Source: Synechococcus sp.
GTDB taxonomy: Bacteria > Cyanobacteriota > Cyanobacteriia > Thermostichales > PCC-7336
Direction: 5' to 3'
NCBI GenBank assembly: GCA_051439425.1
Contig: JBFRWD010000071.1
Coordinates: 1-12,019 of the forward strand
DNA: 12,019 bases
The notes below the pieces were generated by a model, which searched no databases, was not told the DNA's origin, and saw nothing but the letters and a program-made list of their open reading frames with translations. Below, in pieces: positions 1 to 12,019 of the stretch. Both the position numbers and the translations under genes were made by a program. The first letter of the stretch is position 1. Every line of letters begins with the position of its first letter.

Positions 1-104
1 ATTGTATGCTGACCACAAGAAGCACATTTGCGCTGAAGAATTCCTGTCTGAATAGGCGTAAAAGATGATTGGGTTTGAGTGTTTGTGGGCGATCGCATTT
101 GCAT
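1..104 (-). CDS. 5' end of a second DUF4157 (eCIS core domain)-type protein, running off the left edge; missed by the ORF track
   Basis: Manual translation from ATG at 104 gives MQMRSPTNTQTQSSFTPIQTGILQRKCASCGQHT, matching GILQRKCTSCGQQ at the N-terminus of the 608-aa protein. GGAGG RBS at 113-117 lies 8 nt upstream. The DUF4157 domain itself would be outside the window. Confidence 0.85.
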   Translation of the reverse strand, partial: MQMRSPTNTQTQSSFTPIQTGILQRKCASCGQHT

Positions 105-228
105 CTGCTAGCCCTCCATGTTTATCAACAATATTTACTACTTCATTCATAGCAAACTGAACGGGATATGAGGCAATCTCGCAGCAAAAGTTCATACTCG
201 TCTCGATCAATACTGGTAGAATATCAAA

Positions 229-246
229 TTTAAAACCGGTTTTAAA
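229..246. repeat. 18-bp perfect palindrome TTTAAAACCGGTTTTAAA
   Basis: Seen directly; self reverse-complementary. It lies between the two DUF4157-type genes. Function unknown. Confidence 0.8.
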
Positions 247-285
247 GACTGCAACAATGCCTCCTTCATTTCCATGACTGAGACG

Positions 286-384
286 CGATCACAAAACTTT
301 ATGCATAATGGGCGAAATTTCAGAAGGTTCTGATTGATTAGTGGAGCGACGCTGCAAGAGAGATCGCTTTTTCTGACACTCTTC
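286..384 (-). pseudogene. Degenerate fragment of a DUF4157-protein N-terminal leader
   Basis: Translates as EECQKKRSLLQRRSTNQSEPSEISPIMHKVL*S versus AECQKKKSPLKRRSAIQSEPAEVPPIIHEVLQS in the 608-aa protein (21/33 identical by hand count). It has an in-frame TGA at 289-291 and lacks the first CxxC. Confidence 0.85.
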
Positions 385-401
385 CACATTGAAGATGATT
401 T

Positions 402-2228
402 TTAGAAAGTTATTCCTAATTGGAGTCCCAACTGAAAATATGGATCTTCGCGCAGTTTTGGTGAACCTCCAATAATTGCAGCGCCAACCTCACCGAAAGC
501 ACCAAACTCGAACCACGGTCCGGCGTAACCAAGCTGTAGGCGACCGCTAGTCGTAAGTGCACCACTAGGGTCAACGGCTTTACCAAACGCGCCGCCTAGC
601 CGGAGGTCACCCCGAAGCCCAAACCCGCCAGCAGACCGATTGGTAGAATAGCTGAGACCTACTAGTGCACCGACAAGGAAAGCTTTCCGTTTCGGTGGTT
701 CGAGCTGTCCTAAGTATGCTCCGTATCCACCTACCAGTAAACGCCACCGACGTAAGCGGTTCAGGGGAAAACCCGCTGCCAACTCTAAGCCTTGCCCCAA
801 ACTCCAGACTCCTCCAAATTTCCCTGTAAAGGCGAGGTCTAATCCTATTACGACATCGATTACAACAGGGCGCGGTGCTGCTTTTATGCTGAAGCGACAT
901 TTGGGAAATTTTCGACCGAGCCATGCGGGCATAAATGAGAAATGTCGCGGGTGCAACACTGCGCGCCTACCAAAGGAACTATGAGACGCCATCGCTGACC
1001 AGTCACTCTCATTCACGTGCGAGCGCTCACCTGCTGCCCGCCCTTTCAATTCCGGTACGCTGGCTCGTGCAGCATACTCATCAGGCAAACCGAGAACAAT
1101 ATGACCTGCCTCATGCCACAATGTCCCTCCCGAGACACCACCAAGAAGTGCGGTAAACCAATCATCTCCACCAGCAAATATCTGAGCTTCATTAGATCGG
1201 CCTGTATCACTTCTAAGCTCAACTTCAGCAGCATTAGCCGACTTTCCCTCACGGGCAACCACTGTCACCTTGATCTCCTTCCCACGGCACGGCAGAGTGC
1301 AAGCCTTATCACTGCCTACGCTCAGTGTGATCCAGCCATTGAGACGTTTGTTCGCCACCTGCAGGATCTTCGTTTTAAGATTGTCGAACTTCTTGGAGGT
1401 TAGCCGAACCTTTTTGTCCTTGGGATGAGTAAAGTTAATTGCCATCGTCGAAGTCAAAGTGCACTGAGCCTGATTGAATTCCAGCAAGATAGGCCCAGGT
1501 TGGGCGAATAACGGATCGCCTTTCCTTTGTACCTGCTCGCGGATGATATCCCCCTTTTTGGTAAGAGTTCTTGGTACATCAGTCCCATTCTGCCCTGGCC
1601 AGGGTTTGAATGTCTGTCGCTGCAGAATATTTTTATTTAATCGCTTTATAGAATTCAGAGGCAGTGGCAGATCTCTGGCGATGTATTGTGCCACTGTGTC
1701 TGCCTGTATTTCAGAGGTATCGCTAGGTCGACTGATAGTCAAGAGGTTTCGACGCTGCACTTTTTGTGAACCTTGCTGTACTACGTGAGTCAACTCATGC
1801 GCCAGTAGTCTTTGGCCCTTGGTCGTACCAGGCATATACTGACCCTCTCCAAATATTACATCACGACCTACAGTATACGCCACCGCATTTACTGTAGCTG
1901 CTGATTCAGCTGCTTGTGTGTTGTTATGCACGCGTACCTGGCTGAAATCGTGCCCGAAGCGTGACTCCATAAAGGAACGTGTTTGGTGATCCAAAAGCTG
2001 ACCAGGCGATTGCAATACCTCATGTATGATGGGTGGTACTTCAGCAGGTTCAGACTGAATGGCGGAACGACGCTTCAAGGGCGATTTTTTCTTCTGGCAT
2101 TCAGCACACTCACCACCTGCAATCATCTGCTGCCCGCAAGACGTACATTTGCGTTGCAAGATCCCGCTAGAAAGCGGATGCGTTGTTGGCATCTGTTGCT
2201 GAGTCTGAGTTACACTTTCACGAGTCAC
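402..2228 (-). CDS. DUF4157 (eCIS core domain) protein with zinc metalloprotease domain and C-terminal beta-barrel-like domain; putative eCIS effector
   Basis: N-terminal LQRKCxxC..ECxxC leader. DUF4157 hallmarks MESRFGHDFSQVRVH, AYTVGRDVIFG and LLAHELTHVVQQ (~1773-2010). Second motif HEAGHIVLGLPDEY (1074-1115) followed by WSAMAS. Gly/aromatic amphipathic strands end in LGLQLGITF. GTG start overlaps the upstream TGA (GTGA). Confidence 0.88.
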   Translation of the reverse strand: MTRESVTQTQQQMPTTHPLSSGILQRKCTSCGQQMIAGGECAECQKKKSPLKRRSAIQSEPAEVPPIIHEVLQSPGQLLDHQTRSFMESRFGHDFSQVRVHNNTQAAESAATVNAVAYTVGRDVIFGEGQYMPGTTKGQRLLAHELTHVVQQGSQKVQRRNLLTISRPSDTSEIQADTVAQYIARDLPLPLNSIKRLNKNILQRQTFKPWPGQNGTDVPRTLTKKGDIIREQVQRKGDPLFAQPGPILLEFNQAQCTLTSTMAINFTHPKDKKVRLTSKKFDNLKTKILQVANKRLNGWITLSVGSDKACTLPCRGKEIKVTVVAREGKSANAAEVELRSDTGRSNEAQIFAGGDDWFTALLGGVSGGTLWHEAGHIVLGLPDEYAARASVPELKGRAAGERSHVNESDWSAMASHSSFGRRAVLHPRHFSFMPAWLGRKFPKCRFSIKAAPRPVVIDVVIGLDLAFTGKFGGVWSLGQGLELAAGFPLNRLRRWRLLVGGYGAYLGQLEPPKRKAFLVGALVGLSYSTNRSAGGFGLRGDLRLGGAFGKAVDPSGALTTSGRLQLGYAGPWFEFGAFGEVGAAIIGGSPKLREDPYFQLGLQLGITF

Positions 2229-2482
2229 AATCCAATCCCCCCATATACAGCTTGGGCAATCTGCTGTCCCAACTGGCTAGGATTGTTTTCTGGGGCCAGT
2301 TCAATCCTTCCTCCTGGAACACGAGGCACTGCCCCACCCCCCAGTAATTCCGTAGCTAACCCCCCCTCAGCCAGCAATCGTCCTAGTTCCGCTTCAACTG
2401 CTGCCTTTACGAAGGGACGCTGACTGGGCGAAATATTTACCCCATCCAAAACCAGACGCTCGATATGAATATTGATAGTCAT
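2225..2482 (-). CDS. Small conserved eCIS-locus hypothetical protein (85 aa)
   Basis: ATGA/GTGA overlaps with both neighbours. The pattern INIHIERLVLDG...AVEAELGRLL...LGQQIAQAVYGGI resembles the small gene commonly found after the eCIS ATPase. Confidence 0.8.
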   Translation of the reverse strand: MTINIHIERLVLDGVNISPSQRPFVKAAVEAELGRLLAEGGLATELLGGGAVPRVPGGRIELAPENNPSQLGQQIAQAVYGGIGL

Positions 2483-4587
2483 ATTTTAACTCCTTTTGGC
2501 TCTTGCCAGCGAAAATCCAGCTCATTAATCGGTCGCTCCAGCTTACGAAACTCCGCCCGCGCCGCTGCCATCACCAGAGGCATTGTCACCAATGTATTCT
2601 TTTGGGCAGCTAAAAATGCTGCGTTGAGAGCAATATTATGAATACTGCCCCCCGTCAAGTTAAAGCGCGCCAGACGATTGCGATCCAATCCCTTGAGCAA
2701 TTCCTGGTCGTGCATCTCGGTAGGAAACACCCGCTCCCAAATGGCCTCACGCTCAGCCAGACTGGGGAAAGGAAAGTTAACGATAAAGCGCAAACGGCGC
2801 ACGAAGGCATTATCCAGAGAACTCCTCATATTGGTTGCCAAAATCGCTAGCCCTCGGTAGGCCTCCATTCGCTGCAACAGATAGTTAATTTCAATGTTGG
2901 CATAGCGGTCATGGGAATCTTTCACCTCACTGCGCTTGCCAAACAGGGCATCTGCTTCATCAAAAAACAAGATTGCCCCCCCATCTTCCGCCGCATCGAA
3001 CAGACGACGCAGGTTTTTCTCAGTTTCGCCGATGTATTTGCTCACCACTGCCGAGAGATCAATTCGGTAGAGGTTCAGATCTAAGTCATTGGCAATCACC
3101 TCTGCTGCCATGGTCTTACCCGTACCACTATCCCCAGCAAATAGGGCGCTAATTCCCAACCCTCGGTTCATCCGTCGATGAAATCCCCATTCTTCATACA
3201 CCGTACCGCGCTGCCGCACCTGGTCGGCAATCTGATGTAGCAGGTTTTTCTCCTCTTCAGGTAGGACAATATCTTCCCAGGTGGCCTTGGGATCGAGGCG
3301 CTGAGCTAGCACGTCCAACTGGGGACGGGTGCTGCCTAAGCAAGCAGCCCAGAGCTTTTCATGTACGGGATCTCCGTTACTTGGTATTTCCGCCAGCACC
3401 GTTTGAGCAATCTGCTGAATTGTTAAGGCATTAAGGTTAAACTGTCCCGCCAGCAGAGCCGGGCTATTAGCTGCCACATCACCTAGTTCCTCTGCCCAGA
3501 TTTCTTCTTGTTCAACAGCAGTCGGTTTATCAATATCTGCTAAAATCGTAGGTCTTCCCAAGCTGTGATGAATCTCTCGGGTACTCAGGAACAACAGGCC
3601 TTGGCAGCGAGACAAAAAACGATACAGGGGTGGTGCCTGTCCCCCTGCCGGTTTAGGACCATCCGTATCCTGGGCATCTAGGTAGAGGGTGAAGGGCAAC
3701 AGCAAGCTCTCCCGTTGCCACAAACGAGCAAAGGTTTCCAACTCACTAGCTTGGACTGGCAATAACTCTACTGGCAAACGGCAGAGATCCAATTTTAGCT
3801 CCGCTGCGGCTCGCTGAGCCATCAGTTGCTTGCTCATCGAGTCCGCTCCAATTAGCTGTATTAGTGGAGGGCGCTGCCGCCAGTGAGCCTGCTCCAGTTG
3901 TCCCATGATTGCTTCTAGTTCTTCTTGCTGGGAAGGGGGCAATTCAATCTCCCGCTCGGCGGTCTCCAAGGGTACGAGCAACGGTGCTAGGCGGTCATCT
4001 AAATAGTTCAGCCCCTTGATATAGTTGACAATGCGCTCGTCTGACCGTAAGGGACTGGTGGTGAGGGGTTGAGCACCGGGTTGATTGATTTCGATCAGTC
4101 GCCAGTAGCGCAGGGGCCGTTCTGGAGATAGTACATCCCAGGCGGGTTCGTCAAATAGGGACAGCACCAGGGCAAAGGTGGGATAGGGGCGGTTGAAATT
4201 GTCCTGAGCCCGCGCACAAAGCTCGGCAATGCGCGTATCCAACTCCAGCGCAGCGCACAGCAGTAACACCTGCTGTTCGAAGCGAGACAGCCCAAATCGC
4301 TGACTCAGCAAAATCATTGCCGGTCTAGGCTCCAGCTTCTCCGCTTCCAGCATCTCCTCATAGGCTTGTCTCACCTTAGCATCACTTACCTTTTCAACAG
4401 GGGTGGAAGCTGACGCTAACCGATGCCTCCTAAAAGGTTTACACAGGCGGCTCAACCAAGAACCCGACGAGGTTGCCGTAGTTGTGCGATGAGAACGGGC
4501 CTGTTGGAGCAAACGCAAGCGCAGCCAGGTCAGGGCCTTAGCCAGATATACTTCGTTATTCTGCTGCCATTGCTCCAGCTCGTTCAT
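2479..4587 (-). CDS. eCIS AAA+ ATPase (Afp15/Pvc15-like)
   Basis: Walker A GDSGTGKT, Walker B ILFFDEAD, VVSKYIGETEKNL and DRYANIEINYLLQRME motifs. Degenerate first AAA module (GADSMSK). N-terminal FGLSRFEQQVLLLCAALELD winged-helix-like region. Adjacent to the DUF4255 gene. Confidence 0.95.
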   Translation of the reverse strand: MNELEQWQQNNEVYLAKALTWLRLRLLQQARSHRTTTATSSGSWLSRLCKPFRRHRLASASTPVEKVSDAKVRQAYEEMLEAEKLEPRPAMILLSQRFGLSRFEQQVLLLCAALELDTRIAELCARAQDNFNRPYPTFALVLSLFDEPAWDVLSPERPLRYWRLIEINQPGAQPLTTSPLRSDERIVNYIKGLNYLDDRLAPLLVPLETAEREIELPPSQQEELEAIMGQLEQAHWRQRPPLIQLIGADSMSKQLMAQRAAAELKLDLCRLPVELLPVQASELETFARLWQRESLLLPFTLYLDAQDTDGPKPAGGQAPPLYRFLSRCQGLLFLSTREIHHSLGRPTILADIDKPTAVEQEEIWAEELGDVAANSPALLAGQFNLNALTIQQIAQTVLAEIPSNGDPVHEKLWAACLGSTRPQLDVLAQRLDPKATWEDIVLPEEEKNLLHQIADQVRQRGTVYEEWGFHRRMNRGLGISALFAGDSGTGKTMAAEVIANDLDLNLYRIDLSAVVSKYIGETEKNLRRLFDAAEDGGAILFFDEADALFGKRSEVKDSHDRYANIEINYLLQRMEAYRGLAILATNMRSSLDNAFVRRLRFIVNFPFPSLAEREAIWERVFPTEMHDQELLKGLDRNRLARFNLTGGSIHNIALNAAFLAAQKNTLVTMPLVMAAARAEFRKLERPINELDFRWQEPKGVKI

Positions 4588-4598
4588 GGAAATTCACC

Positions 4599-5939
4599 TT
4601 AGGGTAATGGATTAATCTTAACTTTTTGGTCATCTGCAAACTGAGGTGGGATGTTCGTGAAGTCTATCGGAATGCTGTCTACCCCATCCACCCGCAATCG
4701 CAGGATATAGGTCTCAGGCTCTGCATCCCTCACGAGAAAATTGAGTTCTGTGGATGAGTCTGCTATTGTCGAAGCCGATTGCACCGAAATTTCGCGATCG
4801 CCAAATAGTAGGATGACCCGCTGCAATAGCTTGACCGGTTCTCCAGGGGAGATTTTTAAAAGCACTGGTGGAGTACAGGTCAAACGCAGGTTGACATCCC
4901 CAGTTGGGGCTTCTGCGATCGTTGCTCCTGGAGGTGGGGTTGGCTGAGTTATTACGAGCTGTGGAGCCAAGCAAAAGGGCAATTCATTTGTTGTCCAGTT
5001 GGGTAAATTAGGTCGTTGAATCACAAGAGACAGAGTGTAGAAACCAGCCGGCCACTGGGCGGGAACCCCAGGAGTATCAGCAGTAGGAAGTTGAACTTGC
5101 ATTTCCGTGGCAGCTCTCTCAGGTAAAGGAGAAATTTCCACTGGTAGGAGAATCGGCAAATCAGAGGGCTCAGCAAAATTGGAACGCTGATAGCGAAAGC
5201 GCACCATTAAATTATCGCTATCTAATCCTTCACCTCGAATTTTTAGGATATCACCTAACTCAGCACTGGGTTTGCGATTGGGTAAATGCACTTCTCGGAG
5301 GAAGGGAGAGGAAGAAGCTACGGTGTTCACCCCCCGATCGTCACTGCCACGGGATAGTATAGGAAGTGCCGCTTTCCCAGGACGAGTACTGTCGATTAAA
5401 ACCACTGCAACTTGGTAAGCTGCGGAGATACGGTACTGGGTCTGAAAGGTAGCCCATAGTTTGGACATCTCTTCCGAAGACATAGGTTGTGGTGTGATGC
5501 GCACGCGCTCCACCTGTTGGTAGAGATTATTGCCCGGCAACGCCGCTTCAATCTCAGCTCTGCCGAGAACTGGGCGATCGTGGAAGATACTCATTGCCTT
5601 ACCTAGTAAGCGATGGGCCAAAATATCCTCGTCACCTTTTCCGTAGGCAGTTATGAGGTAATATAGGTTCAAAGCTAGGGGAGGCTGACCAGTTTCTCCT
5701 GGTTTGACCTGAATTGGCATCTCCATATTACGCCAGGCAGCATTGGGTTCAGTCTGATAAAGAAAGAGGTTGACAAGATTGCTACTGCCTTCGTTGCTTC
5801 CATTTCCGTTACCTGCTTTATCCAGAGGTTTAGTCGTAACAGCAGCATCGGCTAGCTCAGCGGGAAGACCCTTTTGCGTATCATTGAGCAGATTGCGCAG
5901 GGTAGCAGTTACAGCAGCAATGGCTAAGGAGTTGCTCAT
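4599..5939 (-). CDS. Pvc16/Afp16-like cap (tail terminator) protein, DUF4255, with C-terminal extension
   Basis: MSNSLAIAAVTATLRNLL, VNLFLYQ..PNAAWRN, PPLALNLYYLITAY and EEMSKLW..YRISAAYQVAVVLID are typical of DUF4255/Pvc16_N. About 260 additional beta-rich residues follow. Confidence 0.9.
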   Translation of the reverse strand: MSNSLAIAAVTATLRNLLNDTQKGLPAELADAAVTTKPLDKAGNGNGSNEGSSNLVNLFLYQTEPNAAWRNMEMPIQVKPGETGQPPLALNLYYLITAYGKGDEDILAHRLLGKAMSIFHDRPVLGRAEIEAALPGNNLYQQVERVRITPQPMSSEEMSKLWATFQTQYRISAAYQVAVVLIDSTRPGKAALPILSRGSDDRGVNTVASSSPFLREVHLPNRKPSAELGDILKIRGEGLDSDNLMVRFRYQRSNFAEPSDLPILLPVEISPLPERAATEMQVQLPTADTPGVPAQWPAGFYTLSLVIQRPNLPNWTTNELPFCLAPQLVITQPTPPPGATIAEAPTGDVNLRLTCTPPVLLKISPGEPVKLLQRVILLFGDREISVQSASTIADSSTELNFLVRDAEPETYILRLRVDGVDSIPIDFTNIPPQFADDQKVKINPLP

Positions 5940-7024
5940 CTGTTGTCTCCTTGAGCGCGTTGGCGTAAATATTCATCGAGACTCATCACAGGTGATTGGC
6001 AACGAGATTTGGGTTGAGGAGAGACAGGTGGAGGAGTTACCCGAACTTCAATCCGACCAATAGTTACTTCAATGCTAGAAAACGAGCTGTTTTTTGATAC
6101 CGTGTTTCCAGATGCAGTTGTTACTTGTTTGACAGACGAGGTTGTCTGCGGCTGCACTTCAACTTTTGTCTTTGCAGGGCGCGGCATAGGAGTTAATGCT
6201 GGCATGGGATCTGACTCAACCAGGTTTGTAACTATTGGCTCGCTCAAAGGATTAACAAATGGTTGGGGTTGGGAAGTGCTCTTAATTGTAGTCGGTTGAA
6301 TCGAAGTCGGCTTAGGTACAGTTAGTTGAGATTGTATAGCGGAACTTCCCACAATGAGGTCAATCGTTTGTGCCTTCCTGGCAGGAGTAAATGATTGTTG
6401 ACCCGAACTCGACGTTGTTTCTCCTCCCTCTATAGCTTCTGCTTCGAGTGAGGGGGACGATTGTTTTGGTCTCACTTTAGTTGCTTTTGGTGTGTAACCA
6501 TTTAAAATGGGAATACTAGTCTCAGTATGAACAGTCGAGCTATGCTGCTGCCGATCTAGATTGTTCAGCAAATCTTCACTGGCAGGTGGCTGAATTAGCT
6601 CTGATTCTGCTCTAGGCTGACTAGTGGTAACTTGAGAATTTCCTGTCGGAGGTTCTAGGGAAGCAAATGGCTCTGGTAGTTCTAGTTTTTCCTCAGATTT
6701 TTCTTCAGAGGCTTGCCGCTTAGTCACAGATGATATCATCTGCTCCTGCAATTGAGAGGATAGAGGTTGCTCCATAGGCTGATGAGCTAGCACATTTCCT
6801 AACTGTTCAACAGAAAGAGTTGTTGAGATTTGCTCCTCTGAGATCTCTGCTAATTCAATCTGATCGGAAGTAACTGCCCCAGCTTGTTGCTCCCAGCTCA
6901 TCTTTTCAGTTTCACCTGACCCAGCTAATCCTGGCACAGATTCAAAGCGGTAGATCGGGCGGGGTTTAACTGTCTCAGCTAGACCCAGATTTCTAGCTAC
7001 TAGATTACTGAGATAGTTGCTCAT
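5936..7024 (-). CDS. Low-complexity S/T/P/Q/E-rich eCIS protein (candidate tape-measure/lumen protein)
   Basis: ATGA overlaps at both ends. Ordered termini (MSNYLSNLVARNLG; IEVTIGRIEVR...PVMSLDEYLRQR) flank a probably disordered middle. The function is inference. Confidence 0.75.
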   Translation of the reverse strand: MSNYLSNLVARNLGLAETVKPRPIYRFESVPGLAGSGETEKMSWEQQAGAVTSDQIELAEISEEQISTTLSVEQLGNVLAHQPMEQPLSSQLQEQMISSVTKRQASEEKSEEKLELPEPFASLEPPTGNSQVTTSQPRAESELIQPPASEDLLNNLDRQQHSSTVHTETSIPILNGYTPKATKVRPKQSSPSLEAEAIEGGETTSSSGQQSFTPARKAQTIDLIVGSSAIQSQLTVPKPTSIQPTTIKSTSQPQPFVNPLSEPIVTNLVESDPMPALTPMPRPAKTKVEVQPQTTSSVKQVTTASGNTVSKNSSFSSIEVTIGRIEVRVTPPPVSPQPKSRCQSPVMSLDEYLRQRAQGDNR

Positions 7025-7776
7025 TTGCCTATAATCTCCATATACAATTGCCGCCGTCCAGGACTCAATGCCAGAATCTCCGACTCCCGCCAGCCGTAAA
7101 CTGAAGCCAAAGCATGAATCTCCCTAAGAGTTCGCTGTGCCCAAGTGTGAATTTCACTCCAGAAAAACGACACGATATCAAAAGCTGACTGCCATTGATG
7201 GTTGCAGGTTGGACAAAATAAGTTGAGCTGCACGTCAGCTTGCGGATCCTCCAGTGCCATCTGTTCTATGACCTTCTGTTCCACTTCAGGGGGCAGTTGA
7301 TCGGGTTTCTTCACTTTACCTTGATAGACAATCTTGAGGAGACAGCGTTCCAGCAGAAACTGTGAAGTTTCAACTGCCCGATCGAGGTTAGGAATTTTAC
7401 AGTTAGCTGCAGGAAGTGCAGTTAAATCCGCGCTGTTGGGAAGCCGAAAACAAATCTCATAGCCATCAATACTGAGAGAAAACTCTCTGACTGACTCAAT
7501 AGTCGTTGTAGCTTGGATGTCTGAGACTTGAAAGCTGAGCTCTATGCGATCGCCACACTTGGGACAGGTGGCAACGCCCACGAGTTGAGAACCAAAGAGC
7601 CACTCCCGCAACATTAGCAGCAGGGTATCGCGCTGACCAATGCTGAGTTGGGCTAGTGCCTCTAGTGATGTTTCTGGACAAGCCGTACCTAACAACATTA
7701 GGGCTCTCTCAACCGATGACTTAGAAACCCCTTGTTCCCAGAGGTTCAATAATTCGGAAGCTGATATAGGACGCAT
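7021..7776 (-). CDS. Phage baseplate/tail-assembly chaperone-like protein (T4 gp26-like with DUF6760-like C-terminus)
   Basis: Two CPxC motifs (CPKC, CPTC), LSIGQRDTLLL, FRLPNSADL, and C-terminal EIHALASVYGWRESEILALSPGRRQLY. Lies directly after the tube gene. Confidence 0.75.
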   Translation of the reverse strand: MRPISASELLNLWEQGVSKSSVERALMLLGTACPETSLEALAQLSIGQRDTLLLMLREWLFGSQLVGVATCPKCGDRIELSFQVSDIQATTTIESVREFSLSIDGYEICFRLPNSADLTALPAANCKIPNLDRAVETSQFLLERCLLKIVYQGKVKKPDQLPPEVEQKVIEQMALEDPQADVQLNLFCPTCNHQWQSAFDIVSFFWSEIHTWAQRTLREIHALASVYGWRESEILALSPGRRQLYMEIIGK

Positions 7777-7782
7777 AAGTAA

Positions 7783-8316
7783 TTACGCAGGAGGTTCAGT
7801 AAAAGTGGGCTCAGTCGGCTCAGTTACTTCGTAGTCTCGCTCCCAGCCTTCGTTTTGGAGCGTTAACGTCTGAATCGCAACCGCATTGGCACTGGCGTCA
7901 AGTTCTGGAAGAGCCTGATACTCGGAGACCCAGCAGCGATAAACCTTATAGGCGATCGCCAGTTGTCCCGCTTCATTATACATTTCAATGATTATGTCTT
8001 TGCGAAAATCTTTTAGAGAGACCTCCTTGCCTAGCCCAGAACCATAGTTCCAAACCTTATTTGCCCATTGTTCAAACTCCTTGTCGTGGGTGACACCGCG
8101 TTCGAGCATGATCGCTTCGTACTTACTCTGTCCTGGAGACTTCCGAACCGAACTAGGATCTCCACCCTCGCGATGCTCAACAACTTCGGTTGTCCGCTTC
8201 AGAGCACCGACCTTACTGACCCCAGCAACATATTTCCCATCCCATTTCACGCGAAACTTGAAATTTTTATAGGGATCGAACCGCTGAGGGTTAACATTGA
8301 CGCTAAATTGAGCCAT
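7783..8316 (-). CDS. Tail tube protein (T4 gp19-like; Afp1/Pvc1-type)
   Basis: RFDPYKNFKFRVKWDG, EHREGGD, KSPGQSKYEAIMLERGVT, WVSEYQALPELDA motifs. AAGGAG RBS at 8324-8329. Confidence 0.95.
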   Translation of the reverse strand: MAQFSVNVNPQRFDPYKNFKFRVKWDGKYVAGVSKVGALKRTTEVVEHREGGDPSSVRKSPGQSKYEAIMLERGVTHDKEFEQWANKVWNYGSGLGKEVSLKDFRKDIIIEMYNEAGQLAIAYKVYRCWVSEYQALPELDASANAVAIQTLTLQNEGWERDYEVTEPTEPTFTEPPA

Positions 8317-8338
8317 TGACTTACTCCTTCATGATAAT

Positions 8339-10228
8339 CTAGGTAGCAATCTGACCAGCCATCTGCTGGATCTTAATAATGACGAACTCAGCTGGCTTGA
8401 GCGGGGCAAACCCAACCACAATATTGACAATGCCCAGATTGATATCATTCTGGGGTGTAGTTTCTTTGTCGCACTTAACGAAGTAAGACTCGCGAGGGGT
8501 ACTTCCCTGGAAGGCTCCTTGCCGAAATAGATTTTGCATAAAAGCCCCGATATTAAGTCGAATCTGAGCCCACAGAGGCTCGTCATTCGGCTCGAAGACC
8601 ACCCACTGAGTCCCTCGATAAAGACTTTCCTCTATGAAGAGAACCAAGCGACGAATCGGAATATACTTATATTCATCTGCTAGCTGATCTGCCCCTCGGA
8701 GGGTCCGCGAACCCCAAACGACTCTGCCAATGACCGGAAAAAATCGCAGGCAGTTAATGCCGAGTGGATTCAGCATCCCATTTTCAGGATCGTTTAAGTT
8801 GACTTCCAACCCCTGTATGCCATTCAAGGTCGCGTCAATGCCAGCCGGTGCCTTCCAAACGCCCCGTGTTGTGTCAGTGCGCGCCATTACACCCGCGATA
8901 ATTCCACAGGGAACAAAAGTATCTAGCTGTCCTTCGCGTTTGGGATCGGATTGAATGACTCGTGGAAAGAATAGAGCCGCATTTCTAGCTTGTTCACCAG
9001 TTAAGCCAAGGTTTGACAGCTCACTCTTAGCTTTCGCAGCCGCTGTTTCCTTATTAGCACTCCATTCTGCTGGGGAATCAACAATCAGCATAGCGCGTCG
9101 CTCCTGACAATAAGGCAGCGCATCTTGGTATATCTCTTTCGTCGTACTCTGACCCCGCTCTTCCGGGGGAATACATAGGAGATTAAAGAGATCTGCTTTA
9201 TCAAGCGCATAGAGACCTCTTTTGTTGTCTTTTAGTCCTGACCCAGCAGTAAAATCATTGCGGTCTAGCTTGCCGCCATTGCTCCCTAGATCATCGCCTG
9301 ACACTCCAACCGAACGCTTCGTGTCTTTTTCAGAGAAAGGTTGAATCTTTTTTTCTTCATCAGTTAGGGCAGGTGTTTGGTCATCTGTCTCCTTCGGACG
9401 TAATGCCGAAAGTTGGGAAACTCTTAAAAGATTTGACTCATTTTCAAGTACCCGATCTACCCGCCTTGAACTGTCTCTAACCGTCAGATTGAGGAACCGC
9501 TCGGTATCCCCTGTATTCATATTGCGGATTGTCAGGTTAAAGAGATCGTCCTTAGTCAGAGGCTGGTAACGGTCGGCAACGTTGTCATCAATGTCGTCGT
9601 AGTCCACGCGAGCGCGTAGCGCATTTCCCCACTCTCCTTCACTAGCAGCTTCAAGCTTCAGAGGATCACCAGCTGTCGACGTTGGCAGTTTCAGGAGCGC
9701 CTTTCTGGGGAAAAGAAGTTGCGCCGCTTTTTTAAGATCGTCAACAGTGACTCCAGTCTTACCTGCCGCTGTCGCGACAGCTTCCTTGACCAAACCCGCA
9801 TACTCTTTCTCAGCTACTGGGCTATCCGCATCATCTATGATTTCGTCTGCCTTTTGATCCATGGCAGTTTTGGCAGCATCTACATCGTCGCCATCAGCCT
9901 CATCAGCTACTAGATCTGCTACTCTAAGAGCTGTATCACGATTTCCATCTGTTGCGAAGTTAGGGTGAATCAGCCGCACAATAAGCGCCTGGCTACCACC
10001 GTTCTGGTAGAAATCTTTCACAGCATAGCTCATGAGATATTCCTCATGCAGCCCACCGAATAACCGCTCGAAGTCGCCGTAGCTATTGATGGTAGTTGGT
10101 TCATTGACAGGACCCTGCAAAGTGCGACCGATGAAGGCAGCAATGGATGTAGCAACGCCTGTAATCGTGCGCACACCACTGGGAATTTCCTCGATGTAAA
10201 CGCCTGGATAAGTAGGAGTGGTAGGCAT
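8339..10228 (-). CDS. Contractile tail sheath protein (Afp2/3/4-like)
   Basis: TYPGVYIEEIPSGVRTITGVATSIAAFIG N-terminus; RTDTTRGVWKAPAG, LNPLGINCLR, VWGSRTL, WVVFEPND, GFAPLKPAEFVII C-terminal sheath motifs. AGGGAG RBS at 10237-10242. Confidence 0.97.
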   Translation of the reverse strand: MPTTPTYPGVYIEEIPSGVRTITGVATSIAAFIGRTLQGPVNEPTTINSYGDFERLFGGLHEEYLMSYAVKDFYQNGGSQALIVRLIHPNFATDGNRDTALRVADLVADEADGDDVDAAKTAMDQKADEIIDDADSPVAEKEYAGLVKEAVATAAGKTGVTVDDLKKAAQLLFPRKALLKLPTSTAGDPLKLEAASEGEWGNALRARVDYDDIDDNVADRYQPLTKDDLFNLTIRNMNTGDTERFLNLTVRDSSRRVDRVLENESNLLRVSQLSALRPKETDDQTPALTDEEKKIQPFSEKDTKRSVGVSGDDLGSNGGKLDRNDFTAGSGLKDNKRGLYALDKADLFNLLCIPPEERGQSTTKEIYQDALPYCQERRAMLIVDSPAEWSANKETAAAKAKSELSNLGLTGEQARNAALFFPRVIQSDPKREGQLDTFVPCGIIAGVMARTDTTRGVWKAPAGIDATLNGIQGLEVNLNDPENGMLNPLGINCLRFFPVIGRVVWGSRTLRGADQLADEYKYIPIRRLVLFIEESLYRGTQWVVFEPNDEPLWAQIRLNIGAFMQNLFRQGAFQGSTPRESYFVKCDKETTPQNDINLGIVNIVVGFAPLKPAEFVIIKIQQMAGQIAT

Positions 10229-10606
10229 TGGAAGTTCTCCCTTTCAATTATTTTCAAGACAACACTTGCTCAGATAGCAATAGCTCCTACAAGAGAGTTT
10301 CTGTTTCTTCTACCCATAAAGGGCGCAATCAGCTTAAATGAATTTTTGAGTATTGCTTAATGGTTAACTAGGCTGTTAATAGAGATATTGCTGAGCAAAT
10401 TGTTTAAACGAGACTGCAATTTCAACAACCCCTTATACTTATTAATTGAACACCTAAAAGCTATAATTAAAAACAGATTAAACTTCAATTGGAACAATTC
10501 TTTACGATTCCATTAACTTTCTTGAAAAGCCATAGCCAACTTGGCATTAAACTAAACTAGTTTGTGACCAAAGGATTTTCTCAATACTTAATCCTGATCG
10601 AGAGAT

Positions 10607-10762
10607 TCAAACTTTGTTTAACTTTTTTTGATGTCTAGCCATCTTTTCAAAAGGTAACCCGCAGTGCTGACATTCACCTATTTCCCATTGAAAAGGAATC
10701 AAAAAGGGAGTATGACAGTTGATACATTTAGCAAAAAAACGAACCCTATGATGATCGCATAC
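10607..10762 (-). pseudogene. tniQ: 3' remnant of a type V-K CAST-like tniQ (C-terminal zinc-finger region)
   Basis: Manual translation: VCDHHRVRFFAKCINCHTPFLIPFQWEIGECQHCGLPFEKMARHQKKLNKV*. It fits the CxxH-x6-KCxNCxxPFxxPxxWxxGxCxxCxxPFxxMAxxQK C-terminus of cyanobacterial V-K TniQ as I recall it (Scytonema hofmannii TniQ). In-frame TAG lies immediately upstream (10763-10765), and the N-terminal two-thirds is absent. Confidence 0.85.
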
Positions 10763-10830
10763 CTATAAAAATTTTTCTTAATTCTTTTTTAAGCCTTTAG
10801 TATAGTGAATAAATTAAATTTGAGAAAAAA

Positions 10831-11007
10831 TTGACACTTAATTCTTTAAACTAAAAATTGCGTTTGAAAATAATTGACATTTAATTCTTTAAATCATTCA
10901 AGTGCTACTATATGAAGTGATAATGACTGAAACATATATTTTACAGAAGTTATAGGGATTATTCACTGTGACAATAATTCTTTAAATTGGACAAATAATT
11001 CTTTAAT
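10831..11007 (-). repeat. Four ~20-bp direct repeats, putative TnsB-binding sites (consensus TTTAAAGAATTAwnTGTCA)
   Basis: Copies at 10988-11007 (ATTAAAGAATTATTTGTCCA), 10968-10986 (TTTAAAGAATTATTGTCAC), 10874-10893 (TTTAAAGAATTAAATGTCAA) and 10831-10850 (TTTAAAGAATTAAGTGTCAA). A partial fifth copy (AAAGAATTAAG) sits at ~10777-10787. Confidence 0.88.
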
Positions 11008-11012
11008 GTACA
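10831..11012 (-). mobile_element. Tn7-like transposon end of the type V-K CAST/Tn5053-like family (right-end architecture)
   Basis: Minus strand from 11012 reads TGTACATTAAAGAATTATTTGTCCAATTTAAAGAATTATTGTCAC. Terminal TGTACA is followed by two abutting repeats and two internal repeats. It coincides with the FUSC truncation point and precedes a tniQ remnant. Confidence 0.85.
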
Positions 11013-11550
11013 CTTGCCGATAATCATTGATAACCGTAGCATAGAGTTTACCAATACTGGCGATCGCTCTGATCAAGGCTGGCTCGATTTTATCAAGATC
11101 GCGGTTAGGCCAGAAGGCGATATTAACTGCCATGCCGACAGCGGCACCGAGAAAAATGTTCCAAAATCTCAAACCAATATAATTTGAAGACTCGGTAATG
11201 TAGGTTGGATTACTGACTGCCATAATAATTACAATTCCGCTAAATGCTAACAAGCGCTTGGGGATGCCAAACCAATATCCCCCAACAAGCAACACGGTTA
11301 GACCGAGGGAAAGGGTTATATAGGCATTGCCTTGAAACGCAGCATCCCGACTTATGCCTAAAGTAGCTCCGAGAGCGGCAGATTTTAGTTTATCAAGAAC
11401 ATAATCCAGGGTATCGCCAGCAATCGGATGGATGCAGAGAATAGAACCATACAGAACGTAGGTCATGCGTCTTGAATGTAAGGCATTACCGACAGCAAAA
11501 GCGAGGGCTGCTCCGAGGGCGAGTTTGAAGATATAGCGGTTTACGTTCAT
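10963..11550 (-). pseudogene. FUSC/aromatic acid exporter family membrane protein, 3'-truncated by the transposon end
   Basis: Likely start ATG 11550 (MNVNRYIFKLALG). Several TM segments and RFWNIFLGAAVGMAVNIAFWP are typical of the FUSC/ArAE N-terminal half. The native frame breaks after ...NDYRQ at 11013; the final VYIKELFVQFKELLSQ is read from the repeats. Confidence 0.8.
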
Positions 11551-11563
11551 GGCAAAAAGTACT

Positions 11564-12019
11564 TCAATTTTGAGAAGCTGGTTCGAGGTCAATCAGCAAA
11601 TCGAGATCACAACGGCGTGTCTCTAACCAAGACAAAATCTTCGAGAGGTCTGAGATCAATCCTGCCAAACGATGTTCGATCAGTCCTACTTTTAGGCGAC
11701 TTGCTAAGTCATAAGATTGGATTGTTTCTGCCGTTCTCATTCTGTTTAACTGGTCTTGCCAGCGTTGAAAGTCAGGTTTAGGATTGGGAAGTTGTCTTCC
11801 AATTTGTTGGTCAACAATTGCTAGAGATAATTTAGCAAAAGTTGTACTTAGGCTCTCACCCAAAGCGGAAAGTTCGGTCATTAGTTCGAGTAGCAGGAGA
11901 TTGTCCCGATTATCTTGAAGTAACCGACTAATGGCTAGTAAGTGGGCTAGTAATCGTGCTTGAATAGCGATCGCCTGTAACCATGCTTCCCGATTATCGC
12001 GATCTGACGAGGACAAATT
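11564..12019 (-). CDS. 3' part of a helical protein, probably the soluble C-terminal domain of a tandem FUSC-family protein; start is outside the window
   Basis: The frame is open to the right edge, Leu-rich and helical, and stops 13 nt before the next FUSC start. Family assignment is from context only. Confidence 0.55.
   Translation of the reverse strand, partial: NLSSSDRDNREAWLQAIAIQARLLAHLLAISRLLQDNRDNLLLLELMTELSALGESLSTTFAKLSLAIVDQQIGRQLPNPKPDFQRWQDQLNRMRTAETIQSYDLASRLKVGLIEHRLAGLISDLSKILSWLETRRCDLDLLIDLEPASQN

Follow-up and report, generated by a model that had tools for sequence, protein, structure and literature searches.

A tniQ remnant and transposon left end beside an eCIS operon of Synechococcus sp.: the probable stump of a type V-K CRISPR-associated transposon

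Introduction

Type V-K CRISPR-associated Tn7-like transposons (CASTs) usually home next to tRNA genes, and the element of Scytonema hofmanni (ShCAST) makes untargeted insertions. The left end of ShCAST carries a TGTACA tip, several spaced TnsB-type repeats and a tniQ gene that points away from the end, and a stretch of DNA from Synechococcus sp. has an end of the same kind. Here a 51-codon reading frame with zinc-finger motifs lies, startless, between such repeats and an eCIS (Afp/PVC-like) operon. The locus raises the questions of what this short frame is a remnant of, how it came to be joined to the repeats, whether the element can still move, and whether the neighbouring eCIS genes were brought in by it.

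The window analysed is the entire contig C71 of 12,019 bp. It belongs to a metagenome-assembled genome (MAG) with cyanobacterial kin, the bin of which amounts to 4.80 Mb in 182 contigs and is 96.2% complete and 1.1% contaminated with a GC content of 51.4%. Both ends of the contig are assembly breaks, as judged from Logan contigs, and exact overlaps of 20-55 nt join no contig ends across the assembly. To the right of the eCIS genes follow a 780-nt AT-rich stretch and then two ArAE/FUSC-like genes. The features of the window, including those predicted from Pfam matches and the list of open reading frames (ORFs), are as follows.

1..10228, minus strand: upstream module of the eCIS operon, in the same orientation as the tniQ stump
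402-2228, minus strand: eCIS_core/DUF4157 protein (Pfam/ORF list)
2479-4587, minus strand: AAA ATPase (Pfam/ORF list)
4599-5939, minus strand: Pvc16-like protein, cap (Pfam/ORF list)
5936-7024, minus strand: eCIS-module gene of unknown function
7021-7776, minus strand: T4_baseplate-like protein (Pfam/ORF list)
7783-8316, minus strand: eCIS gp19-type tube (Pfam/ORF list)
8339-10228, minus strand: eCIS sheath (Pfam/ORF list)
10229..10606, minus strand: AT-rich spacer of 378 nt and 33% GC, from the tniQ stop to the start of the eCIS sheath gene
10607..10762, minus strand: tniQ 3' remnant, 51 codons and a stop, startless, equivalent to residues 127-175 of the TniQ P0001 and 122-166 of ShCAST TniQ
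10763..10776, minus strand: internal-deletion junction zone of 14 nt, assignable to neither side, separating the truncated fifth repeat from the first base that aligns with tniQ
10777..10793, minus strand: fifth TnsB-type repeat, truncated (…AAAAAAGAATTAAG), without the TGTC core that would lie at an offset of ~236 from the tip
10831..10850, minus strand: TnsB-type repeat 4 (TTTAAAGAATTAAGTGTCAA)
10874..10893, minus strand: TnsB-type repeat 3 (TTTAAAGAATTAAATGTCAA)
10968..10986, minus strand: TnsB-type repeat 2 (TTTAAAGAATTATTGTCAC)
10989..11012, minus strand: left-end tip TGTACA (11012-11007) and repeat 1 (TTAAAGAATTATTTGTCC)
11013..11592, minus strand: 5' half of a gene for an ArAE/FUSC-like membrane protein, which the transposon tip interrupts at codon 178 of ~353
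11564..12019, minus strand: 3' part of a tandem paralogous ArAE/FUSC-like gene that continues past the contig end

Results

A 51-codon tail of tniQ

The minus-strand translation of 10593-10798 reads ...EKFL*VCDHHRVRFFAKCINCHTPFLIPFQWEIGECQHCGLPFEKMARHQKKLNKV*. It contains 51 sense codons at 10762-10610 (VCDHH…HQKKLNKV) followed by a stop at 10609-10607, with an in-frame TAG at 10765-10763 immediately 5' of them and no ATG, GTG or TTG at their head; the list of ORFs of at least 40 aa has no entry at this place. The motifs CxxH (CDHH), CxxC (CINC), CxxC (CQHC) and PFxxMAxxQK (PFEKMARHQK), which an earlier note on this DNA had named, are all found in the translation.

When the remnant was compared with PDB chains by phmmer, the sole significant matches were to ShCAST TniQ (PDB 8rdu, 7n6i, 7oxd, 8ea3), at E-values of 2.8e-11, 5.7e-11 and 2e-10, and the best other match had an E-value of 4.5. 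Residues 2-46 of the remnant align with residues 122-166 of the 167 in ShCAST TniQ, so that the zinc-finger tails are collinear over 45 positions, and all Cys and His positions aligning with ShTniQ are retained in the remnant (the counterpart of residues 127-175). All four candidates from a set of 5.8 billion proteins are likewise TniQ-like (E 9.8e-20 to 6.5e-12, 75-85% identity). The remnant is 78-79% identical to P0001 (175 aa, residues 127-175) and P0002 (174 aa, residues 126-172), the values referring to these two as cluster representatives of the loci L001 and L002 described below.

An intact small TniQ has about 160-180 aa with C-terminal zinc fingers, and the N-terminal TniQ domain is missing from the remnant. 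Pfam, including the TniQ model PF06527, and NCBIfam gave no match on the 51 residues because the region modelled by Pfam TniQ, i.e. residues 15-133 of the 172-residue TniQ of the intact element in genome G036, is deleted here. A tblastn search with full-length P0001 and P0002 found no other match on the contig and none with E<0.1 elsewhere in the genome. On these sequence comparisons, the 51-codon stretch is a 3' remnant of tniQ, as the earlier note had proposed for 10607..10790; the significant matches are to TniQ only, and neither of the contrary outcomes that the note had foreseen, a match to non-TniQ zinc-finger proteins or none at all, occurred.

Transposon end, deletion and insertion junctions

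Read on the minus strand from 11012, the element starts with the TGTACA tip, followed by repeats of the form TTTAAAGAATTA, 1-3 nt and TGTC. Four of them are complete (AAAGAATTA, 1-3 nt, TGTC), with TGTC at offsets of 19, 39, 133 and 176 from the tip. As a motif of fixed spacing, the repeat has three copies in the window against 0.02 expected, a number reached in none of 200 shuffles. The partial fifth repeat that the earlier note had placed ahead of the remnant is indeed there: AAAAAAGAATTAAG at 10790-10777 breaks off at the position where TGTC is expected.

The closest TniQs are found in a Xenococcaceae MAG (L001, JASJDB010000372.1) and a Chroococcales MAG (L002, JBBSPC010000097.1), which share with the window a five-repeat left-end layout behind a TGTACA tip, the repeat cores lying at 19/40/143/174/229 and 19/40/146/177/233, respectively. 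In contrast to the window, both keep tnsB, tnsC and a full tniQ: tnsB (567-591 aa, Mu-transpos_C) is located 312-326 nt from the tip and is followed by tnsC (285-286 aa, TniB/AAA_22) and then tniQ. The end repeats at these nearest TniQ loci differ from those of the window in sequence (…AATTAACTGTCGC), not in layout. Their hosts are low in GC (35-39%), compared with 51% for the host of the window.

DNA homology between the window and tniQ of L001 and L002 (~81-83% identity over ~100 nt) starts at ~10763 and extends to the stop, past which all three sequences diverge. Since homology begins there and the fifth repeat is truncated, the deletion junction lies between 10776 and 10763, which agrees with the breakpoint that had been suggested near 10765-10780. 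Measured on the two intact relatives, the missing piece has 3007-3082 nt (~3.0-3.1 kb), a size that, like its reading as a single event, is an estimate, as the parent element is not at hand and the nearest TniQs are 78-79% identical. It comprises the last 6 nt of repeat 5, the tnsB leader, tnsB, tnsC and tniQ codons 1-126, in line with the deletion of several kb through tnsB, tnsC and most of tniQ that the earlier note had postulated. The 14 unassignable nucleotides at the junction could reflect a more complex rearrangement than a single deletion.

Two metagenomic contigs among the Logan contigs bridge the locus without differences: one of 3269 nt from sample X1 equals window 7887-11155, and one of 3944 nt from X2 equals window 7014-10939. 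Two samples of one study thus span the deletion junction, and one of them also spans the junction between the end and its flank; the samples may include the source sample of the bin, so that they confirm the assembly and are not independent biology. An assembly chimera is ruled out by these two contigs. A joint running from 11012 back to 10969 (44 nt) was also seen among X1 contigs, at a depth of 13.5. Two further places, a site-like word at 10493-10506 and the 'GGGGTTGTTGAAAT' stretch, which is reminiscent of a V-K repeat end, were set aside, each being a single, weak resemblance.

On the other side of the tip, the insertion junction is precise. The 353-aa homologue of the split ArAE/FUSC-like protein in genome G427 (65% identity) aligns by residues 1-178 only, and this alignment ends at 11014, while the tip base is 11012; the open frame of the split gene takes in a further 16 codons from the element, up to 10963. 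The assembly does not contain the 3' half of the gene. One Logan contig of X1 matches the window from 11013 rightwards and has 112 differing letters on the left side. A hand translation of its 30-letter consensus carries the reading frame of the gene on, five of ten residues being those of the G427 protein; by this hand reading, the contig is an uninterrupted allele, i.e. an empty site in a related strain of the same metagenome. Record 14 of X2 behaves likewise, with 40 unlike letters followed by 11013-11166 with 14 differences. A DNA search for the empty site across 41 genomes found the flank in the source genome alone and the stump region in two, the source genome and G036. The ArAE-like gene was absent from all 12 relatives searched and occurs, besides the source genome, in four of 400 genomes of the phylum. 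A tRNA scan and Rfam searches (gathering threshold on the window; E<=1 on 10150-11100) showed no tRNA attachment site, tracrRNA-like family or other RNA.

Missing partners and mobility

The position beside the left end where tnsB belongs is occupied by the deletion junction, and no replacement was found elsewhere in the assembly, a MAG in which low-GC or repeat-bearing pieces (cas12k, array, right end) could be unassembled or unbinned. In tblastn searches with TnsB and TnsC of four elements and Cas12k of two, no match with E<=1e-3 was obtained, and the best matches at E<=50 were noise. Among Pfam models, TniQ has no match in the genome; neither has Mu-transpos_C (PF09299), a search that is weak on its own as the control genomes are also silent. 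TniB (PF05621) matches six places in frames of 567-930 aa, as weakly as in 14 control genomes. The 24-nt tip, with up to five mismatches, occurs assembly-wide on C71 only, which gives no right end, while a relaxed repeat search returned 99 single matches across the genome, clustered elsewhere only in an unrelated 15-nt tandem on contig C75. The assembly contains no CRISPR array.

Because no transposase, second end or targeting protein was found, the stump is taken to be immobile in this genome; given a 96%-complete assembly, it probably cannot move here. The earlier note had asked whether another tnsB or tnsC with the same ends exists in the genome, and none turned up. Its suggestion of a non-autonomous element movable in trans fares poorly, as no second end was found and the cognate transposase is absent from the genome. 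That the stump is the end of a non-autonomous element which related CASTs could still mobilise is very unlikely indeed. Four of its five left-end repeats are intact, and related elements live in the same communities: the 44-nt tip stands beside other flanks in X2 (three contigs) and X5 (two contigs), and one X5 contig matches the tniQ tail with nine differences in 125 nt. Against such mobility stand the destroyed fifth repeat, the lack of a second end (up to five mismatches) or other repeat cluster in the assembly, and the lack of cognate tnsB, tnsC, tniQ and cas12k in the genome.

Kinship of the parent element

Compared with ShCAST, the window keeps just the last 51 codons of tniQ and has no tnsB, tnsC, cas12k, tracrRNA, array or right end; its repeat sequence is different, and the insertion is in a protein-coding gene and not by a tRNA gene. 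The end repeats point to other relatives. The end-repeat word of the window (TTAAAGAATTA…) is shared by the CASTs of G036 (L016/L017) and of Gloeothece verrucosa PCC 7822 plasmid NC_014534.1 (L004), with tips 88-95% identical over 22-40 nt. The tip of the window is 88-91% identical over ~35-40 nt to both ends of the intact, cas12k-bearing G036 element, the two inverted end sites of which are 24.8 kb apart and are matched at 88-90% by the last 38 nt of the end in the window. One of these ends is followed by tnsB, tnsC and tniQ; Dnd-type defence genes lie between the ends, and at the other end a 583-aa Cas12k (E 3.3e-59 to ShCas12k) adjoins a repeat array. The G036 TniQ is 40% identical to the remnant, and its cargo consists of defence genes, whereas the neighbour in the window is an eCIS. 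In the Gloeothece element, annotated with cas12k and flanked by the repeat type of the window, the ends are ~6.8 kb apart and cas12k comes straight after tniQ.

Cas12k is also present in all three genomes with the closest TniQs (L001-L003). In L003 its gene shares contig and strand with tniQ and lies ~14 kb downstream, past DISARM-like cargo. The usual layout of the group is therefore left end, tns genes, cargo, cas12k, array and right end, and the parent of the stump would have been a type V-K, Cas12k-type element. In L001 and L002, cargo and not cas12k directly follows tniQ. At the stump itself, no cas12k was seen linked to the remnant.

A V-K-like parent that lacked Cas12k is not favoured. 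Such a parent could have been a protelomerase-associated transposon (PAST) or another TnsB-TnsC-TniQ element, perhaps with one recognisable end. In a preprint (bioRxiv 10.1101/2024.11.13.623437), PASTs are described as a TnsA-less TnsB-TnsC-TniQ lineage near V-K, with 27 cyanobacterial elements that have one recognisable end and neither cas12k nor an identifiable second end. The absence of cas12k next to tniQ at the closest TniQ loci would suit a PAST, and so would the five residues by which the remnant runs past the C-terminus of ShTniQ, as one PAST TniQ is reported there to have a 10-residue tail. However, the same text describes PAST TniQs as more diverged from those of V-K elements, while the remnant matches ShTniQ at E 2.8e-11, and it places PASTs at replicon ends by protelomerase, while the stump has a split ArAE-like gene on one side and an eCIS operon on the other. 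The insertion is within a gene on an ordinary contig with no telomere, and no protelomerase domain is found among the ORFs of the window. Two elements with the end-repeat type of the window carry Cas12k, as do the three genomes with the closest TniQs. Taken together, a Cas12k-less parent is quite improbable.

The neighbouring eCIS module

The cluster next to the stump has in common with Afp/PVC-type eCIS a sheath, gp19-type tube, Pvc16-like cap, AAA ATPase, eCIS_core, gp25, Baseplate_J and Tail_P2_I, and differs in being split over two contigs. Pfam locates the sheath, tube, cap, ATPase and eCIS_core proteins on C71 and gp25, Baseplate_J and Tail_P2_I, i.e. the rest of the system, on contig C97; synteny with the genus relative G001 (contig C16) supports linking C97, by its right end, with the left end of C71. 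The two halves have different relations to the genus. Baseplate proteins of C97 are 93% (G003), 78% (G001) and 57% (G002) identical to their counterparts and behave as vertical, whereas the eCIS proteins of C71 have 30-58% identity to those of the three relatives, the sheath half being xenologous. DNA homology to the closest relative, G003 (81.5% over 5.3 kb), ends at C97:14551 just past gp25. From this stop and the low identities on C71 it follows that the half from sheath to spike is strain-specific, and on its other side this half is bounded by the transposon end.

Base composition separates the eCIS from the stump. At 46-53% GC by gene and 49.5% over the whole region (GC3 55-67%), the eCIS is close to the 51% of the host; the values for tniQ stump, spacer and transposon end are 36%, 33% and 22%, respectively. 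In four intact relatives, the GC content of the backbone tracks that of host and cargo; for example, L002 has a backbone of 36-39% and cargo of 41%, and G036 46-55% and 50-53%, respectively. On this basis the backbone has the look of a recent import from a low-GC lineage, and the eCIS does not. The 378-nt spacer has no similarity to the fetched CAST and eCIS loci or to the genome itself and no Rfam match. A promoter and terminator scan of 10150-11100 gave four promoter-like sites against 4.2 expected and no terminators, which neither backs nor opposes a possible read-through from the left end into the eCIS.

The earlier note had offered, as one outcome of the deletion, that it fixed the eCIS in place by domestication. 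This would require the eCIS to have been cargo, and it could not be established: the right end, cas12k, array and other half of the target gene are absent from the assembly, the GC content of the eCIS is host-like next to a low-GC tniQ stump, and tns or cas12k genes are absent from all 80 metagenomic loci that have related sheaths (52-88% identity, best segment). Arrival of the module as cargo, with the loss of tnsB, tnsC, tniQ and the distal end locking the sheath-to-spike genes into the chromosome, is nonetheless a serious if somewhat doubtful candidate. The eCIS shares its strand with tniQ and starts 378 nt past the tniQ stop, no terminator-like site intervening, and in L002, L003, L005 and G036 cargo begins right after tniQ. 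The module is foreign to the genus, at 30-58% identity compared with 78-93% for the C97 baseplate in G003 and G001 (57% in G002), and the homology to G003 ends ahead of the spike-side genes. In addition, the sequencing depth of the eCIS is at the level of the strain itself, while the flanking gene attracts extra contigs from relatives. Beyond the missing distal parts and the 0 of 80 sheath loci, cargo of 49.5% GC behind a 36% GC stump departs from the intact relatives, in which backbone tracks host and cargo. A full-text literature search turned up no account of CAST or Tn7 elements carrying an eCIS, reports on eCIS plus Tn7 being judged by title and abstract. The main text of Benler 2021 (PMC8649781) has no occurrence of contractile, sheath, tail or secretion system, although its supplements could list such cargo. 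In the passages on cargo of a review (Annu Rev Biochem, PMC11406308), CAST cargo is mainly mobilome, defence and repair genes.

The converse reading, in which the transposon landed by a resident, already divergent eCIS that was never mobile, has close to an even chance without quite reaching it. It would involve two deletions, one through tnsB, tnsC and 5' tniQ and another that started just past tniQ and took everything up to and including cas12k, the right end and the ArAE-like gene's 3' half; the latter deletion would account in one event for all three of these losses. It fits the GC contrast among stump, spacer and eCIS, and a gene order equal to that of G001:C16 makes a resident system plausible. 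On the other hand, a separate and unexplained event is needed for the xenology to the module of G001 and G003. The rarity of the ArAE-like gene (0 of 12 relatives, four of 400 genomes of the phylum besides the source) also speaks against it, and relatives with an uninterrupted ArAE-like gene (~91% identity) add no eCIS depth, a weak point taken from contigs only. A more daring form of the cargo reading, in which a V-K CAST brought a foreign sheath-to-spike module that recombined with a resident eCIS near the gp25/spike boundary at C97:14551 to form a hybrid injection system, is unlikely; it would delete the resident upstream half, right end, cas12k and 3' half of the target gene in one event.

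Discussion

The locus is very probably best explained by the insertion of a type V-K CAST and a subsequent single internal deletion that left an immobile stump. In the history proposed here, the transposon would have inserted into the ArAE/FUSC-like gene of this cyanobacterium or a recent ancestor, with a backbone resembling the low-GC elements of Chroococcales and Xenococcaceae, a lineage that may have been the donor. The deletion of ~3.0-3.1 kb would have come later, taking the tnsB leader, tnsB, tnsC and three quarters of tniQ and fusing the fifth TnsB-binding repeat to tniQ codon 127. The outcome would be non-coding debris, made of a left end with four repeats predicted to be usable and a startless 51-codon tniQ tail. 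As such, the feature is a fossil of a familiar element type: the decayed type V-K CAST is itself ordinary, and what is unusual is its neighbourhood. It should be annotated as a pseudogene or transposon remnant, neither as a TniQ gene nor as a CAST.

For the family, the remnant marks exactly where and how a V-K CAST died, with a four-repeat left end joined to tniQ codon 127, and it records a V-K-type insertion within a protein-coding gene instead of beside a tRNA gene. For the organism, it sits at the boundary of the strain-specific half of an eCIS operon. If that half was cargo, it would be a case for which the full-text literature search found no precedent and a route for the exchange of injection-system modules. 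If the hybrid history were true, modules of a contractile injection system would have been swapped by means of a guide-RNA transposon, which would afterwards have been stripped of its machinery.

Mosaic structure and copy number of the eCIS operon

The eCIS operon of this Synechococcus genome is a mosaic, in which a vertically inherited baseplate half (on contig C97, which carries gp25, Baseplate_J and Tail_P2_I) is combined with a xenologous spike-to-sheath half (window 1-10228). The baseplate half is 93%, 78% and 57% identical to its counterparts in the genus relatives G003, G001 and G002, respectively, while identities of the spike-to-sheath half to these relatives range from 30% to 58%. 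DNA homology to G003 ends at approximately C97:14551, and a 495-aa AAA ATPase is instead found directly upstream of gp25 in G003.

Further sheath and Pvc16-like genes were found on two other contigs of the same genome:

C33:61598-63274, second sheath, a 576-aa frame that is 44% identical to the window sheath
C150:14187-15419, second Pvc16-like gene, 30% identical to the window Pvc16-like gene

The genus relatives have sheath matches at 42-43% and Pvc16 matches at 30-37%, similar to the C33 and C150 copies, and in G003 both matches are located on a single contig. Based on these additional genes and their like-identity matches in the relatives, the window eCIS is an extra copy or variant.

A short tandem repeat was observed at the left end of the window contig (window 1-400). 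In Logan contigs of three sequencing runs (X1, X2 and X3), position 384 is joined back to position 1 with 16 letters between, and residues 42-74 of the eCIS_core protein are also matched by window 286-384 at 64% identity with one TGA. This tandem repeat probably explains the assembly break between the window contig and C97.

Transposon end and related elements in the community

Across window 10828-12019, contigs of X1 and X2 reach 4-8 times the depth seen over the eCIS, and the extra depth comes from contigs that are 90-95% alike. Relatives of higher abundance in this sediment carry the ArAE-like genes, whereas they lack this eCIS at a likeness of at least 90%. The 44-nt end tip (window 10969-11012) occurs with different flanks in three contigs of X2 and two contigs of run X5, position 11012 is joined back to 10969 in one X1 contig (depth 13.5), and 69 and 119 nt are skipped from repeat 2 to repeat 3 in X2 and X5 contigs. 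Altogether, these observations point to the presence in the community of related elements whose spacers are shorter.

The 378-nt spacer contains a single end-repeat-like word (TAAAGAATTGTTCC, window 10493-10506) in direct orientation; this word is located 100 nt past the tniQ stop and may be due to chance.

Related V-K CAST elements

Genome G036 contains an intact V-K CAST about 24.8 kb long (C12:734.8-759.7 kb). It carries Dnd-type and PLD-helicase cargo, and its tnsB is separated from the left end by a DDE_Tnp_1 transposase gene and a holin-family ORF. The right-end flank resembles a tRNA 3' end, but ARAGORN makes no tRNA call there.

The end repeats of the plasmid CAST of Gloeothece verrucosa PCC 7822 (NC_014534.1, about 16814-23638) are apparently separated by only about 6.8 kb; the cas12k of this element is possibly frameshifted, since it is annotated as two overlapping CDS. 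A tnsB broken into two ORFs is found both in a Nostoc MAG element (L003 7409-9150) and in the Calothrix NIES-4105 plasmid element (L005 13007-14131). Broken V-K backbones seem to be common among the few relatives sampled.
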